A stretch of 64,000 bases of DNA from an uncultured Actinomycetes bacterium (GTDB lineage Bacteria; Actinomycetota; Thermoleophilia; Gaiellales; JAICJC01): positions 434,459-498,458 of the forward strand of contig CAVXEE010000007.1 of assembly GCA_963760755.1 (NCBI GenBank). Reading direction: 5' to 3'. The notes beneath the pieces are model-generated. The model ran no database searches. It saw only the letters and a list, made by a program, of their open reading frames with translations, and was not told the DNA's origin. Positions 8,179 through 46,911 of this stretch are shown in pieces. Every line of letters begins with the position of its first letter. The first letter of the stretch is position 1. The position numbers and the translations under genes were made by a program.

Positions 8179-9458
8179 CCCAGCTCGCGCGAGAGCAGGT
8201 CGGCGACGGTCTCGCGGGCGACGACCACACGCTCGGCCCCGTCCGCGACCATCACCGCCGCCGGCCGCGGCAGGCCGTTGTAGTTCGAGGACATCGTGGC
8301 GGTGTAGGCGCCCGTCGCCGCCAGGGCGATCACATCGCCCGTCCGCAGCTGCGGCAACGCGGCCGCCTCGATCAGGATGTCGCCCGACTCGCAGTGCTTG
8401 CCGGCCACCGTGTAGGTGTGCGTCGCCGGCTCCCCGAGGCGATCGACCACGAACGCCTGGTAGCGCGCCCCGTACATCGCCGGGCGGGGGTTGTCGGCGA
8501 TGCCCCCGTCGACGGCGGCGTAGGTGACGCCGGCGTCCGTGCGCTTGATCGCACCGACCGTGTAGAGGGTGACGCCGGCCGGCCCCGCGATCGAGCGGCC
8601 GGGCTCGAGCACGAGCTCGGGCAGCGGCAGCCCGCGATCGCCGAGCAGCCCGGCCAGCACGGTCGCCGTCTGCTCGACCGCGGCGCGCACGTCGGGCGCG
8701 CGGTCGGCGTCGGTGTAGGCGATGGCAAGGCCGCCGCCGAGGTCGAGCACCGGCAGGTCGCCCAGGCCGTGTTCGGCGATGAACGACGCGAGCCACGCGG
8801 CGGCCTCGAGGTAGGTGCCGACGTCGCGGATCTGCGAGCCGAGGTGCACGTGCAGGCCGGCCGCGCGCACGTGCGCAAGCCCCGCCGCCGCCCGCAGCGC
8901 GGCGACGGCCGCCGCCGGGGGCAGGCCGAACTTCGACGCGGCGTGGCCGGTCGCGATCTTGTGATGCGTGTCGGCCTCGATCCCCGGCGTGACCCGCACG
9001 AGCACGTCCTGGACACGCCCGGCCGCGGCGGCGAGCGCCTCGATCTGGGCGAGCTCGGCCGGGTGATCGACCACCACCAGGCCGGCGCCGGCCGCAAGCG
9101 CCGCCGCGATGTCCGCGTCGGACTTGTTGTTGCCGTGCACGATCAGGCGCTCGCCCGGCACGCCGGCGGCGAGCGCGAAGGCCAGCTCGCCCTCCGAGGC
9201 CACGTCCATGCCGAGCCCTTCCGAGACGAGCACCCGCAGCACCGCGACGGTGACCTGCGCCTTGCAGGCGAAGGCCGCCCGGGCCGCGCCCGGGTACGCC
9301 GCCAGGCCGTCCCGGTAGGCGCGCGCACGCAGGCGCAGCGTGGCCTCGTCGTAGACGAGCAGCGGCGTGCCGTGACGGGCGGCCAGGTCGCCGAGCGCGA
9401 CGCCGCCGACGGCCAGGCGGCCGCCGGTCACCACCGCCGTCTCGGGCAGGACGCTCAT
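8175..9458 (-). CDS. lysA: diaminopimelate decarboxylase
   Basis: 427-aa ORF with the motifs FACKA (PLP Lys), HGNNKS, LDLGGGLAIAY, EPGRSIAG and CESGD. Confidence 0.92.
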   Translation of the reverse strand: MSVLPETAVVTGGRLAVGGVALGDLAARHGTPLLVYDEATLRLRARAYRDGLAAYPGAARAAFACKAQVTVAVLRVLVSEGLGMDVASEGELAFALAAGVPGERLIVHGNNKSDADIAAALAAGAGLVVVDHPAELAQIEALAAAAGRVQDVLVRVTPGIEADTHHKIATGHAASKFGLPPAAAVAALRAAAGLAHVRAAGLHVHLGSQIRDVGTYLEAAAWLASFIAEHGLGDLPVLDLGGGLAIAYTDADRAPDVRAAVEQTATVLAGLLGDRGLPLPELVLEPGRSIAGPAGVTLYTVGAIKRTDAGVTYAAVDGGIADNPRPAMYGARYQAFVVDRLGEPATHTYTVAGKHCESGDILIEAAALPQLRTGDVIALAATGAYTATMSSNYNGLPRPAAVMVADGAERVVVARETVADLLSRELG

Positions 9459-9502
9459 CGGATGGCCATCCTAGAGAGTCGGCGCCGGTATCCTGCCCGC
9501 CC

Positions 9503-11008
9503 ATGTCGAACCGCGTGCTCGTCGTCGGCTGGGACGGCGCCGACTGGGAGGTGCTCGACCCGCTGCTGCGGGCCGGCGACCTGCCCAACCTGGCGGCGCT
9601 CGCCGAGCGCGGCAGCCGCGGCGTCGCCCGCTCCGTCATCCCGTCGCACTCCTGGGCGGCGTGGCCGTCGTTTCTGACGGGCGTCGATCCGGCCGGGCAC
9701 GGCGTGTTCGACATCCTCGAGCACCGGCCCGGGCAGACGCGCCGGCTACCGGTCTCGTCGCGGTCGATCCTCGCGCCGACATGGCCGCAGCGGCTCTCCG
9801 ACGCCGGCCGCACCGTGCTGCTCGTGAACGTGCCGCTGACCTATCCGCCGATCCCGGTGCGCGGCGTCGTGATCGCGGGCGGCGTGATCCCGCCCAAGGC
9901 GGTCTACTCGCACCCGCCCGAGACCGGCCCTGCGCTGCACTGGCCGATCAACGGCGGCTCGTGGACGACCTTCCGCCACCGGCCGCTCGAGCTCATCGCC
10001 GACGTCGAGCGGGTGACGGCCGACCGTGCGGCGGCGGTGCGGCAGCTGCTCGACGCCGAGCCGTGGGACGTCGCCTGCGTCGTCTTCGTCTCGCCCGACC
10101 GCATCCAGCACTGCCTGCTCGAGTACGTGCACCCCGGCCACCCCGATCACGCGCGTGCCTCGCAGACACCGGTGGCCGAGCGCGTGCGCGACGTCTACCG
10201 CCTGCTCGACCGCGAGCTCGGGGCGCTGATCGAGCGCACCGACGGCGAGGACACCGTGATCGTCATGTCCGACCACGGCCACCAGCCCTGCACCCGGGCG
10301 CTGAACATGAACCGCGTGCTCGAGCAGCTCGGCTACCTGCACCTGGGGCGCGGCTCGGCCTTGATCGGCCTGCTCGCCTGGGGCCGCGTGCGCTCGCTCG
10401 CCCGCGTCGCCTACGACAAGCTCGGCCTGCACGGCAAGGTGGCCGTGCCGACGGCCCCGATCGACTGGGCGCGGACGCGGGCGTACACGAGCGTCGTCTC
10501 GACGGGCGAGGGCGTCTCGCTCGCGCTGCAGGGCCGCGAGCCCGAGGGCACCGTGCCGGCGGCCGACTACGAGCGCGTCCGCGCCGAGCTCGCCGCCGCG
10601 CTCGAGGGCTTCATCGACCCCGCGACCGGCCGCCACCCGATCCGGCGGGCGGTGCCGCGGGAGCAGGTGCTCTCGGGCGCCTACCTCGACCGCGCCCCCG
10701 ACCTCCTGCTCGAGGCCGCGCCGCTCTACTCGCTCACCCACGCCCGGCAGATGGTCGAGGCGGCCGACTGGCTCTCCGGCGACCACCGCCCCGAGGGCGT
10801 GTACGTGGCCGCCGGGCCGGGCACGGGGCCGGCCGACGGCGGCGAGATCGCGCTCACCGACTTCGCCGCGATCATCGCCGCGGCCGCGGGCGTCGCGGCG
10901 GACACCGCCCCCTCGGCAGCGCCGGACGAGCCCGACGGGGCGGTGTTCTCTGACGAGGAGCAGCGCGAGGTCGAGGAGCGCCTGCGCGGGCTGGGCTACC
11001 TCGAGTAG
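9503..11008 (+). CDS. alkaline-phosphatase superfamily protein (type I phosphodiesterase/nucleotide pyrophosphatase-like)
   Basis: VLVVGWDGADWEVLDPLL..PSHSWAAWPSFLTG..VMSDHGH is typical of the metal-binding core of this family. Confidence 0.75.
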   Translation: MSNRVLVVGWDGADWEVLDPLLRAGDLPNLAALAERGSRGVARSVIPSHSWAAWPSFLTGVDPAGHGVFDILEHRPGQTRRLPVSSRSILAPTWPQRLSDAGRTVLLVNVPLTYPPIPVRGVVIAGGVIPPKAVYSHPPETGPALHWPINGGSWTTFRHRPLELIADVERVTADRAAAVRQLLDAEPWDVACVVFVSPDRIQHCLLEYVHPGHPDHARASQTPVAERVRDVYRLLDRELGALIERTDGEDTVIVMSDHGHQPCTRALNMNRVLEQLGYLHLGRGSALIGLLAWGRVRSLARVAYDKLGLHGKVAVPTAPIDWARTRAYTSVVSTGEGVSLALQGREPEGTVPAADYERVRAELAAALEGFIDPATGRHPIRRAVPREQVLSGAYLDRAPDLLLEAAPLYSLTHARQMVEAADWLSGDHRPEGVYVAAGPGTGPADGGEIALTDFAAIIAAAAGVAADTAPSAAPDEPDGAVFSDEEQREVEERLRGLGYLE

Positions 11009-44630: not shown

Positions 44631-45278
44631 TCAGGCGATCGTCCACGTCCAGGTCGCGGCGGCGGTGAGCGCGCCGTCGGCGTCCGCGGCCTGCACCTGG
44701 AAGGTGTGGGTGCCGGTCGCGAGCCCCGCATACGCGGCCGATCCGGCGCAGTCGGCGAGCGCACCGCCGTCGAGCCGGCACCGGAACGCGTGGAAGGCGG
44801 GGTGCGTGAAGGTGAACGCCGCCGTCCTCTGCGTCGTCCCCGAGACCGGGCCGGACGTGATCGCCGGGGCGGCGCTCGAGACTCTGATCGACGCGGTCGG
44901 GGCGCTGGCGGGGCCGGCCCAGCCGTTCACCTGGGCGGTGACCGTGTAGGTCGCCTTCCCGTCGGGAATGCCCGTCAGGACGCACGCGGCCGCCGTGGTC
45001 GTGCACACGACGGTGTCGGACGCGGTCGCATGGCGCGCAACCGCGTAGGCCACGCCGGCCGCGGCCGGGACGGCCAGCGGTGTCCACATCACCGTGAACG
45101 TGGTCGTGGCCACGGTGTTTCGGACGGACGTGTCCACACCGTCGACGCCGGCGAGGCTCCCGGTGGCGGCGAGCCCCGGCCCGGCGCCGCCGGCCGACCA
45201 GTAGGCGCCGGCGCCGGCGGCCGCGACGAGGGCGGCCGCGGACACGGCCAGCATGCTGACGAGCGCCCGGCCGATCAC
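44631..45278 (-). CDS. secreted protein A of the YW-motif operon (N-terminal AYWS motif plus FN3-like and Ig-like domains)
   Basis: GTG 45278 overlaps the upstream stop (GTGA). VIGRALVSMLAVSAAALVAAAGAGAYWSAGGAGPG comes first. Then YAVARH...C.....C.LTGIPDGKATYTVTAQVNGWAGPAS (FN3-like). Then TAAFTFTHPAFHAFRCRLDGGALADCAGSAAYAGLATGTHTFQVQAAD (Ig-like repeat type). Confidence 0.55.
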   Translation of the reverse strand: MIGRALVSMLAVSAAALVAAAGAGAYWSAGGAGPGLAATGSLAGVDGVDTSVRNTVATTTFTVMWTPLAVPAAAGVAYAVARHATASDTVVCTTTAAACVLTGIPDGKATYTVTAQVNGWAGPASAPTASIRVSSAAPAITSGPVSGTTQRTAAFTFTHPAFHAFRCRLDGGALADCAGSAAYAGLATGTHTFQVQAADADGALTAAATWTWTIA

Positions 45279-45736
45279 AGCGCCGCCTTCAGATAGACGT
45301 GCACGGCGAGGCCCTGGCACGAGGCCGGCGCCGAGGCCGCCATCGCCAGCGAGTCGCGCAGGTCGAGGTCGATGGTCGCGCCGGCCGGCACATCCCAGCC
45401 GCCTGTCGCCGGGACGAAGGTGAGTCCGCACCCGGCGGCGTTGGCCGAGAAGCCGCCGCTTGCCGCCGCGGTGTCGAGCACGAGCGCCGCCACGTGCACG
45501 CCGTAGGTGTTCGGGTTCGTGACCGCCACGGCGACGTCGCCCATCGCCTGCCCGGTCGGATAGAGCGCCTGCGTGGCCGCGGTGCCCGGCGCGATCGTGA
45601 CCGGCTGCGGCGATGCGGCCGTGGCGGCGGCGGTGCCCGCGCCGTTCGTCCAGTAGGCATACGCGGCCGGGGCAGCGGCGAGCAGCGCCCCGGCGAGCGT
45701 GGCGGCGAGCGCCGCGCGGACGGTGCGGGTGCTCAT
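45275..45736 (-). CDS. small secreted protein B of the YW-motif operon
   Basis: MSTRTVRAALAATLAGALLAAAPAAYAYWTNGAGTAAATAAS. It has a Cys pair (AAGCGLTF ... ASCQGLAVHVYL). 153 aa. The ATG overlaps the upstream stop (ATGA). Confidence 0.55.
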   Translation of the reverse strand: MSTRTVRAALAATLAGALLAAAPAAYAYWTNGAGTAAATAASPQPVTIAPGTAATQALYPTGQAMGDVAVAVTNPNTYGVHVAALVLDTAAASGGFSANAAGCGLTFVPATGGWDVPAGATIDLDLRDSLAMAASAPASCQGLAVHVYLKAAL

Positions 45737-46215
45737 CGGGCCCTCCTCGCCGTCGCCGCATAGGCCAGGGCGACGTGCGCGCCCCAGCAGGCGGTCTGAT
45801 CCGATCGTGTGTCGAGCATCGCCACGCCGGGCCAGCGGGCGGCCGGGTAGCCGAGCTGGGCGAGCGTGCGGCTGCGGCCGGGGTGAAGCACGATCGAGAA
45901 GCGGCCGCGGAACGGCAGCGCCCGGAAGTTGCGCCGCGCCGCGCAGCCGCGCCCCGGCGTCACGCCGCGCACGGTGACGACGAGGCGGGTGATGCGAACC
46001 GCGAACGGGCGCCGGTCGGTGAGGCGCAGGTCGATCGGCACCCGCCGGCCCGGGACGAGCGCCCCGGACGGCCGGCCGGCGATGGCGACGCCAGGCCCGG
46101 CGGCCCGATGGGTGCCGCCCGCGGCGGCCGCGCCGCCGGCGGCCGCCGCGCCGGCGACGCAGACCGCGGCGACGACCGCCGCGCGGACGCGGGAGGTGGA
46201 GAGGAGGCGGCGCAT
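45733..46215 (-). CDS. small secreted protein C of the YW-motif operon (paralog lacking the YW motif)
   Basis: MRRLLSTSRVRAAVVAAVCVAGAAAAGG is the signal. The Cys pair is RGCAARRNF ... TACWGAHVALAY. 160 aa. Its start overlaps the gene D stop by 1 nt. Confidence 0.5.
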   Translation of the reverse strand: MRRLLSTSRVRAAVVAAVCVAGAAAAGGAAAAGGTHRAAGPGVAIAGRPSGALVPGRRVPIDLRLTDRRPFAVRITRLVVTVRGVTPGRGCAARRNFRALPFRGRFSIVLHPGRSRTLAQLGYPAARWPGVAMLDTRSDQTACWGAHVALAYAATARRAR

Positions 46216-46673
46216 CACGAGCTCGAGAGGGCGAGCGTGAGGGTCGCGCCCTTGCAGACGTCCTGGCTGACGCCGGTGTCGGCCATCTGCAGCGTGCCGG
46301 TGCCGGCGAGCGCGTACGCGCTGCTCGCGGCCGACACACGCGTGTTCGAGACGACGTCGGCCATGGTGAAGTCGGCGACGGCGCAGCCCGAGTGCGCGGC
46401 GTCGGCGGTCACGCCGTCGAGGTGGATGCGGGTCACCTGCAGGCTCGACGAGCCCGGGTTGTCGGCGGTGAACGAGACGGTGGCCGCGCCACCGGGGGCG
46501 AGCGCAGCCGCGGCGACACCGTGCAGCACGACGGTGCCGTTCGCCGAGGCCACCGTCGCCGTGCCGGTGCCTGCGCCGGTCGTCGTCCAGTAGCCGTAGG
46601 CGGCGCCCGAGGCGGCCAGGCAGGCGACGACGGCGAGCGCCGCAACGCGGCGCGGTCGGAGGAATGGGGACAT
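46215..46673 (-). CDS. small secreted protein D of the YW-motif operon
   Basis: MSPFLRPRRVAALAVVACLAASGAAYGYWTTTGAGTGTATVAS. The Cys pair is HSGCAVADF ... DVCKGATLTLAL. An AGGAG Shine-Dalgarno lies 10 nt upstream of ATG 46673. 152 aa. Confidence 0.55.
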   Translation of the reverse strand: MSPFLRPRRVAALAVVACLAASGAAYGYWTTTGAGTGTATVASANGTVVLHGVAAAALAPGGAATVSFTADNPGSSSLQVTRIHLDGVTADAAHSGCAVADFTMADVVSNTRVSAASSAYALAGTGTLQMADTGVSQDVCKGATLTLALSSS

Positions 46674-46710
46674 GATCGGGGGTCTCCTGATCGGATCGAT
46701 GGCCCGCGAC

Positions 46711-46746
46711 CCGGCCGTGCGCGGGGTGCAGCGGGCGCACGGCCGG
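46711..46746 (-). promoter_or_regulatory. strong hairpin in the 5' leader of the YW-motif operon
   Basis: CCGGCCGTGCGC (46711-46722), a 12-nt loop, then GCGCACGGCCGG (46735-46746), a 12-bp perfect stem. It lies 38-73 nt upstream of the first start codon, inside a 238-bp non-coding gap. Confidence 0.45.
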
Positions 46747-46911
46747 TGAGCGTGGGAGCCTCGGGGTACGAGGGCTTCGCGGATGGCCGCCGGCGGGGGA
46801 CTGCGGCCGATCCGGCGCCGGGAGAGGTGATCTCGGCGGCGCAATTCGAAGCATGGTCCGGACGCTCCTGTTGCGGTATCCCCGCCTCGCCGTATGCGGC
46901 CTACCGCAGGA

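Follow-up and report, generated by a model that had tools for sequence, protein, structure and literature searches.

A Four-Gene Operon of Actinomycetota and Its Candidate Role in a Donor-Strand-Complemented Surface Fibre

Introduction

What would a bacterium make from four overlapping genes of which three encode the same predicted N-terminal strand and three encode the same beta-sandwich domain? This question is raised by the operon D-C-B-A, which spans positions 44631-46673 on the minus strand of a 64-kb window (the whole stretch of DNA analysed here) from an uncultured Actinomycetes bacterium. A preliminary description of this DNA had suggested that the four genes encode subunits of a non-canonical surface fibre. 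The explanation favoured here, to which we give about an even chance, is that the operon encodes a sortase-independent, chaperone-free surface fibre built by donor-strand complementation.

The four genes form a combinatorial set: D and B contain both the strand and the domain, A contains the strand without the domain, and C contains the domain without the strand. A chaperone-free donor-strand fibre is favoured because these putative donors (A, B, and D) and acceptors (B, C, and D) mirror the subunits of the TasA/TapA and Tafi fibres.

In the proposed mechanism, which runs from cleavage through strand exchange and polymerisation to the polarity and location of the fibre, all four proteins would be exported by Sec. 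The general signal peptidase I would cut D, B, and A at A-x-A, so that each mature protein would start with Y-W-(T/S) and continue into a G-x-G-x-G-x-A-x-V strand, and the freed strand would insert into the beta-sandwich of the next subunit. D, which is the first gene of the operon and the most widespread, would serve as the repeating shaft or major subunit, both donor and acceptor, and B as an optional adaptor or minor subunit that likewise donates and accepts. A, with fibronectin type III (FN3) and immunoglobulin (Ig) modules of variable length, would be a donor-only initiator and/or adhesin at one end, like TapA or TafC. C would be acceptor-only and close the other end, where its N-terminal hydrophobic segment may hold the fibre on the envelope in the manner of TafF.

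The D-C-B-A Operon

The four genes lie where the preliminary description had placed them, and their stop and start codons overlap, as it had reported, by 1-4 nt at the D/C, C/B, and B/A junctions (TGATG, ATGA, and GTGA). The same 4-nt gene overlaps are present in a related locus (L002). The G+C content of the window is about 73-77%, and long chance open reading frames (ORFs) are abundant throughout. G+C at third codon positions is 0.94-0.95 in the called frames of D, C, B, and A versus 0.64-0.78 in the other two frames, so the four are genes rather than chance ORFs of G+C-rich DNA. D, C, B, and A are thus real, coupled, minus-strand genes, and the cassette itself is more than a chance arrangement, as it recurs in dozens of distinct actinobacterial genomes.

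D (46215-46673) encodes 152 aa, comprising a predicted signal peptide (residues 1-27, ending in A-Y-G at the cut), an N-terminal strand (residues 28-45, YWTTTGAGTGTATVASAN; 46539-46592, minus strand) that is the putative donor, and a beta-sandwich (residues 46-152) with Cys97 and Cys140. B (45275-45736) encodes 153 aa with a predicted signal peptide ending in A-Y-A, a YWTNGAGTAAATAAS strand, and a D-type beta-sandwich containing Cys103 and Cys140. A (44631-45278) starts with GTG and encodes 215 aa, in which a predicted signal peptide ending in A-G-A precedes a YWSAGGAGPG segment (residues 26-44) and two FN3-like domains modelled by AlphaFold2 (about residues 45-120 and 131-214), with no D-type sandwich. 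C (45733-46215) encodes a very basic protein of 160 aa with an N-terminal hydrophobic segment and a D-type beta-sandwich, but without the YW/GxGxG strand.

The N-Terminal Motif

D, B, and A each begin, as had been noted, with a basic N-terminus and a hydrophobic helix, followed by AAYG/YWTTTGAGTG in D, AAYA/YWTNGAGT in B, and AGA/YWSAGGAGPG in A. C lacks the YW motif, which the preliminary description had implied. A logo of 247 D-family sequences anchored on the aromatic pair gives the consensus A-x-A, cut, Y-W-T-x-x-G-x-G-x-G. Before the cut, position -3 is Ala in 95% of sequences, position -2 is Tyr, Phe, or Val, and position -1 is Ala in 84% and Gly in 14% (Ala or Gly, 98%). After it, +1 is Tyr (88%) or Phe (11%), +2 is Trp (83%) or Phe (15%), and +3 is Thr or Ser. 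Gly then recurs at +6 (100%), +8 (98%), and +10 (93%), with Ala or Gly at +12 and Val or Ala at +14. The residues G-G-G-A-V fall on one face of the strand and Ser/Thr on the other, and this layout is kept in B and A.

The YW motif is therefore conserved in homologues, although its limits need redrawing. The motif had been described as a single unit, A-Y-x-Y-W-T/S; from the logo, A-Y-A is a classical -3/-1 signal peptidase I site and Y-W-T is the predicted mature N-terminus. Mature D, B, and A are accordingly predicted from sequence to start at Y-W after a signal peptidase I cut, and the motif appears to form a conserved amphipathic strand at that N-terminus.

The hydrophobic segments also admit a different role, in which the proteins would remain uncleaved signal anchors of a small membrane hetero-complex, with Y-W at the membrane interface, a Gly/Ser/Thr tether, and no fibre. 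Aromatic residues are common at membrane interfaces, the segments are fairly long (17-18 uncharged residues before the motif in D), and the motif stretch is modelled with low confidence. Small residues at -3 (95%) and -1 (98%), however, suit signal peptidase I and would be useless to an uncleaved anchor, and a tether would not be expected to keep Gly at i, i+2, and i+4 together with an amphipathic Ala/Val pattern. A membrane complex is distinctly improbable on this evidence.

Export by the twin-arginine translocation (Tat) pathway was also considered. The window clade contains P-R-R-V-A-A-L, yet in the wider family most N-regions have KK or KR in place of the twin arginine, and Tat export was rejected for this reason.

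Protein Families and Folds

None of D, C, B, and A matched a Pfam or NCBIfam model at E<=1. A 5.8-billion-protein index contains 208 homologues of D, all of them "hypothetical" proteins of about 150 aa from Actinomycetota, and the D-family profile matched 4225 of 1.84 billion cluster representatives at E<=0.001 and 1406 at E<=1e-10. By these searches D belongs to a large, unnamed family without a Pfam or NCBIfam model. A literature search found no description of the family or the cassette, in keeping with the earlier remark that these proteins were not recognised as a characterised family.

The paralogy proposed for D, C, and B is borne out by profile comparison. By hhalign, the D and B family profiles match over their full length (99.7%, E 2.9e-25). 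For the D and C profiles it gave 99.3% (E 3e-20), with D residues 42-152 falling on the last 130 residues of the C family, so that the alignment starts after the N-terminal motif of D. The Cys pair that had been pointed out in the three window proteins is invariant in all three family alignments, and only this pair and Q/D are conserved across D, B, and C. The D family has 11 near-invariant positions, of which three (G33, G35, and G37) lie in the N-terminal strand.

AlphaFold2 models D as an eight-strand beta-sandwich with a predicted local distance difference test score of 75 overall, 86-92 in the core, and <50 at residues 22-44. A Foldseek search of this model against the PDB returned no match at E<=0.001, the best being arrestin and GAE at E>=0.035. 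A is modelled, from a shallow alignment of nine sequences, as a signal helix, a coil over the motif (residues 29-44), and two beta-sandwich domains. Foldseek matches this model to tandem FN3 structures at E of about 1e-5 (70 matches at E<=1e-3), which agrees with the FN3-like and Ig-like modules first proposed for A. A matched none of the D, B, and C profiles at E<=1e-3, and no D-type domain was found in it.

The C-terminal domain of A (residues 131-214; window 44637-44888) is a module of the pattern F.F...F.C.LDG...C..Y..L..G.H.F.V.A.D...W.W.I. The same module precedes the D-type domain in long C-like proteins of related loci (L005 8962-10239; P0309). From these sequences, A and the long C-like proteins look domain-shuffled, one joining the strand to modules and the other joining modules to the acceptor.

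Several conserved residues of the D family lie outside the strand. Asn72 is invariant (46458-46460), and Asp138 (46260-46262) and Lys141 (46251-46253) are nearly so; this trio is reminiscent of the isopeptide triads in Gram-positive pilins, archaeal threads, and BsaA. The counterpart of Lys141 is Gln in B, and the residue is not kept in the C proteins of the window clade. Asp91 and His94 are nearly invariant in the D family only. Weak matches to copper-related beta-sandwiches were also obtained with the D and C profiles and some family members. They fall at about D residues 49-100 (46374-46529) and include the PmoB/AmoB C-terminal domain (E 0.006-0.6), SilF together with a binding protein of a copper ABC transporter (E 0.36-0.61), and, for the homologue P0074, a precomputed PCuAC (PF04314) label. 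A copper-protein identity was set aside because only the Cys pair and Q/D are conserved across D, B, and C, and the matches were judged to reflect, probably, a generic PG....V.h.v.N.G sandwich motif.

Distribution and Variation of the Cassette

Relatives were collected by a pattern scan of one genome per species, which found them in at least 246 genomes, and the 80 best loci were examined. Gene calls in these loci are our own ORF calls combined with D, B, and C profile searches of all ORFs, rather than curated annotation. All 80 loci are from Actinomycetota. The hosts include uncultured or poorly cultured Gaiellales, Solirubrobacterales, and Acidimicrobiia, the cultured genera Kribbella, Arthrobacter, Cryobacterium, and Patulibacter, and further Jatrophihabitans, Intrasporangiaceae, and Frankiaceae.

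Co-occurrence across related genomes, which had been put forward as a check on the cassette, was counted on the same strand in the 61 loci where the sequence downstream of D extends for 5 kb or more. A C-like gene follows D in 52 of these loci, an A-like gene (the N-terminal motif plus a long extension) in 45, and a B-like gene in 26. Gene order is variable, as illustrated by a locus with the order D-B-C-A (L005). The predicted mature length of A-like proteins ranges from about 190 to about 1590 aa, and the large ones contain Big_5 and CHB_HEX_C_1 domains above threshold. Long C-like proteins contain one or more Ig-type modules ahead of the D-type domain. Only 3-4 residues separate the last strand of the Ig domain from the D-type sandwich behind it, which leaves no space for a cis counterpart of the N-terminal strand.

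The neighbourhoods of the related loci contain no recurring sortase, ATPase, chaperone, or regulator. Two metagenome-assembled genomes each contain two separate cassettes with differing A-like proteins (L024 and L030 in JBBQUW01; L077 and L086 in CAVUMZ01), as would be expected if the variable protein sets specificity. The best D match over the aligned segment, with 95% identity, is in a metagenome-assembled genome of an uncultured Actinomycetes bacterium (L013 7884-9403), where D, C, and B are fragmented across different frames, which suggests frameshifts due to assembly errors or to decay of the cassette. Arthrobacter sp. AL12 (L001 10552-14118) has a reduced two-gene version, in which D is followed only by a 1188-aa protein with a degenerate N-terminal motif, GTAWPYSTGPVSGAGSA; a C-like or B-like gene was not detected there.

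Relation to SipW, TasA, and Other Surface Systems

The preliminary description had assigned the proteins to the SipW-dependent or "alternate-type" signal-peptide class and likened them to TasA. Neither assignment was supported. TIGR04088 and TIGR04089 matched none of the four window proteins or of 48 diverse D-family members at E<=1, and the window proteins did not match PF12389 Peptidase_M73, NF046066 TasA, or TIGR04090 BsaA at this threshold. No DUF1102 or Taf-related match was found among the window proteins or the surveyed family members.

A diverged branch of the TasA superfamily that uses a SipW-type (archaeal/ER-type) peptidase encoded elsewhere would overlap with the favoured model, and a few results lean towards it. 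Five of the 48 family members match PF12389 below threshold (best E 1.3e-4), which makes it the most-matched Pfam family, and one matches TIGR04090 BsaA at E 0.029. In a search of PDB sequences with the D profile, AbpX was the third match (E 0.46, below significance), with a plausible 46-residue alignment over the block PG..V.FT..N.G...TI.L....C. Two related loci, both from Solirubrobacterales, contain a SipW-type peptidase (TIGR02228, 79-85 bits) and TasA-like proteins with the motifs GTFAAFSASTTNVGNQITSGTV and GVYGLFTGTTQNTGNELTSGTV adjoining the cassette (L056 13129-15013; L083 1221-3612). In L056 these genes lie directly downstream of the cassette on the same strand.

These links weaken on inspection. 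The two loci are 2 of 80, against roughly 0.5 expected by chance on our own estimate, and both come from one order. Their TasA-like proteins match the TasA and BsaA models only at E 0.007-0.03, and comparing the D family by hhalign with three TasA-like proteins encoded next to SipW genes gives a probability of 7.7%. When ten "AYFT"-type members were compared with Peptidase_M73, the one match (E 0.35) covered residues 7-46, the signal-peptide region only. Foldseek of the D model against the PDB returned no TasA or AbpA in the top 50, and no S26 motif or SipW-type (TIGR02228) peptidase was found in the 64-kb window. The A-x-A site also suits the housekeeping enzyme. TasA-superfamily membership of the D family is thus not established by these searches, and a SipW-processed TasA branch is quite unlikely.

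The absence of a peptidase gene in or beside the operon had been called unusual. The absence stands, but it is less odd than it seemed, because the textbook A-x-A site suits the general enzyme and CanX loci also lack a dedicated peptidase or chaperone (10.1101/2024.12.30.630787). Two traits of the donor-strand fibres are present at the locus: the N-terminal strand starts at the signal peptidase I cut predicted from sequence, as in the TasA superfamily, and a complementary donor-only, donor-plus-acceptor, and acceptor-only set is encoded together, as in Tafi.

Other surface systems were considered and rejected. Sortase pili do not fit, as D ends in ...LTLALSSS, B in ...YLKAAL, and A in ...WTWTIA, with no LPXTG. 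No credible sortase was found near the cassettes: of five TLxTC pattern matches, three are contained within large A-like ORFs of the cassette strand, and two are on the opposite strand (L007 and L008), and LPxTG gave one stray match in 86 loci. Class III signal peptides of type IV pilins and Tad pseudopilins have a short basic leader that is cut before the hydrophobic helix (G, cut, F/M-T-L-x-E). The conserved motif here follows the helix, and the neighbourhoods contain no ATPase, platform, or prepilin peptidase. A chaperone-usher system was likewise rejected from direct reading and neighbourhood scans.

Evidence For and Against a Fibre

The fibre-subunit reading of the preliminary description survives without its assignment to TasA/SipW. 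The secreted paralogues, the FN3 protein, and an N-terminal segment placed like the donor strand of TasA all remain, and the domain logic fits major, minor, and terminal roles. Several observations count towards a donor-strand fibre beyond the distribution of strand and domain. The strand is conserved, yet AlphaFold2 models it with less confidence than any other part of the D and A monomers. The predicted cut lies directly before Y-W and puts an aromatic residue at +2, as in TasA, the cassette is widely spread among Actinomycetota, and A-like proteins vary in length as adhesins do. The four-role architecture has a precedent in Tafi (PMC11821415) and, in part, in TasA/TapA (PMC9674648), and faint links to the TasA superfamily (Peptidase_M73 in 5 of 48 members and AbpX at E 0.46) may hint at kinship.

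Other results weigh against it. In the monomer model of D, a tight S-N-G turn folds the N-strand against the strand that follows, and the N-strand of D could thus be a cis edge strand of its own domain. Signal-peptide cleavage of D, B, and A is predicted, and sequence and fold searches, including the hhalign comparison above, do not place the sandwich with TasA, AbpA, or FimA. C is also ambiguous between an anchored and a released form. Its family has an N-terminal hydrophobic run of 19-30 residues, which is a signal peptide or a membrane anchor and may tether the fibre to the envelope. In lineages other than Solirubrobacteraceae this run looks cleavable (A-Y-A, cut, T-Q). In the C-like proteins of Solirubrobacteraceae (L039, L044, L058, L025, L034, L040, and L052; about 8530-10050), it reads ...A-G-A-F-A-P and is followed by a proline-rich stretch in which Pro reaches 33%. 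A Pro at +1 should prevent cleavage by signal peptidase I, and the proteins of this clade only may thus be uncleaved anchors with a wall-spanning linker.

The same model of D is what lends weight to non-polymerising Ig-like proteins of the envelope or secreted fraction, such as adhesins or binding proteins, in which the strand would be the cis first strand of D and B. The motif would then be a sorting, processing, or modification signal, for example for Thr/Ser O-glycosylation or for recognition by an unlinked enzyme. The motif stretch is indeed Thr/Ser-rich, no assembly factor was found encoded nearby, and no structural or sequence match to known fibre subunits was significant. However, we know of no glycosylation or sorting signal built of alternating invariant Gly. 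Such proteins would also leave unexplained why C has the domain without the strand and A the strand without the domain, and why these complementary forms are kept in one coupled operon across the phylum. This explanation is rather unlikely, and the donor-strand fibre is retained as the favoured one.

A bolder form of the fibre proposal, which we hold as possible rather than probable, is that the cassette encodes the first donor-strand-complemented pilus of Actinomycetota. Such a pilus would be phylum-wide, would work without a sortase, chaperone, or dedicated peptidase, and would consist of pilins from a new beta-sandwich family, only about 125 aa long, whose order is set by the strand and acceptor content of each paralogue. 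It would then be a so far unrecognised branch deep within the TasA superfamily, or else the donor-strand principle would have been invented independently.

The Leader

The 238-bp non-coding leader (46674-46911, minus strand) lies between a TRAM/tRNA-U5-methyltransferase-like gene and D. It contains a Shine-Dalgarno sequence, AGGAG (46684-46688), 10 nt upstream of the D ATG, and the hairpin that had been reported for it is present at 46711-46746, 38-73 nt upstream of the start codon, as a perfect 12-bp stem (CCGGCCGTGCGC/GCGCACGGCCGG) with a 12-nt loop. Six of seven syntenic relatives (L007, L008, L009, L010, L012, and L002) keep a hairpin at 63-78 nt before the D start. The stem shows a compensatory T:A to C:G change (CCGGCCGTGCGC/GCGCACGGCCGG versus CCGGCCGCGCGC/GCGCGCGGCCGG), and the loop varies in sequence and length (8-12 nt). 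The compensatory change and variable loop favour an RNA structure over a protein operator, either an element of the 5' untranslated region or a U-less terminator of the upstream methyltransferase gene. An Rfam scan and scans for sigma-70 promoter and terminator consensus sequences gave no match in the leader.

Significance

The D family comprises thousands of sequence clusters yet has no Pfam or NCBIfam model, and it occurs in common cultivable soil genera (Arthrobacter, Kribbella, Cryobacterium, and Patulibacter) as well as in abundant uncultured Thermoleophilia and Acidimicrobiia. If the proteins do form a fibre, D would be a new, very small self-assembling building block, and the order of assembly could be read from the gene set alone. 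The A-like proteins would be candidate adhesins, some as long as about 1600 aa, that could serve attachment to soil and the formation of biofilms. A fibre would also test whether the TasA/Tafi principle predates the split between the domains of life or arose repeatedly. Even if there is no fibre, the conserved A-x-A/Y-W-T-x-x-G-x-G-x-G N-terminus marks an unexplained class of export or processing.

Comparison with Known Fibres

Actinomycetota are known to build sortase pili, Tad/type IV pili, chaplin/rodlin amyloids, and mycobacterial MTP at their surface, while chaperone-free donor-strand fibres are documented in Bacillota and Archaea. Against this background, the cassette is best regarded as a new protein family in a new cassette that probably follows the donor-strand principle, which is unreported in Actinomycetota.

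Chaperone-usher (type 1/P) pili share with the cassette Ig-like pilins, an N-terminal extension of alternating small and hydrophobic residues, a conserved Gly, and a conserved disulfide, along with ordered tip, adaptor, rod, and terminator subunits in one operon. Unlike the cassette, they depend on a chaperone in the periplasm and an usher in the outer membrane; the locus encodes neither, and the phylum lacks that compartment.

The cleavage motif of TasA, ...W-A, cut, A-F-N-D, differs from A-x-A/Y-W-T-x-x-G-x-G-x-G. TasA nevertheless places its donor in a similar way: its residues 28-38, F29 among them, begin where the signal peptidase cuts and fill in the sheet of the following subunit, and the first strand comes from TapA, whose N-terminus is similar (PMC9674648). 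Both systems have an aromatic residue at +2, F29 in TasA versus W here (PMC9674648). TapA, with the same N-terminal strand, nucleates the fibre and the monomer is self-complemented (PMC9674648; 10.64898/2026.01.04.697558), as the favoured model would have it for A and D. The TasA superfamily and D also have in common a strand-turn-strand block, PG....V.F...N.G. TasA differs in its jelly-roll of about 230 aa, compared with 125 aa for mature D, and in its tapA-sipW-tasA operon, which carries its own peptidase.

CanX/CanA cannulae resemble the cassette in their Sec signal peptide for signal peptidase I and their chaperone-free donor-strand complementation (10.1101/2024.12.30.630787). Of the fibre subunits in the PDB, AbpX (163-174 aa) comes nearest by sequence profile, at the sub-significant E-value given above. 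Cannulae and AbpX differ in being archaeal, calcium-dependent homopolymers with no tip, adaptor, or terminator paralogues in the operon (10.1101/2024.12.30.630787).

The system of Tat-fimbriae (Tafi) in Haloarcula hispanica, whose architecture rests largely on AlphaFold modelling, divides its roles among a multi-domain TafC that only donates, TafE and TafA that donate and accept, and a membrane-bound TafF that only accepts (PMC11821415). The four roles thus occur in one locus, and TafC would correspond to A, TafE to B, TafA (about 150-190 aa) to D, and TafF to C. The Tafi subunits are Ig-like, with an N-terminal strand that is either "closed" or extended, and require no chaperone or usher (PMC11821415). 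Tafi differ in being archaeal and Tat-exported in haloarchaea, although Sec-dependent archaeal analogues exist, and their locus encodes a dedicated signal peptidase, TafD, which the cassette lacks (PMC11821415). The anchor of TafF is a C-terminal helix, but the hydrophobic segment of C is N-terminal, and sequence similarity between Tafi and cassette proteins was not detected. Judged by its architecture, the cassette appears to belong to this functional class, and it most resembles Tafi and TasA/TapA in how it would work.

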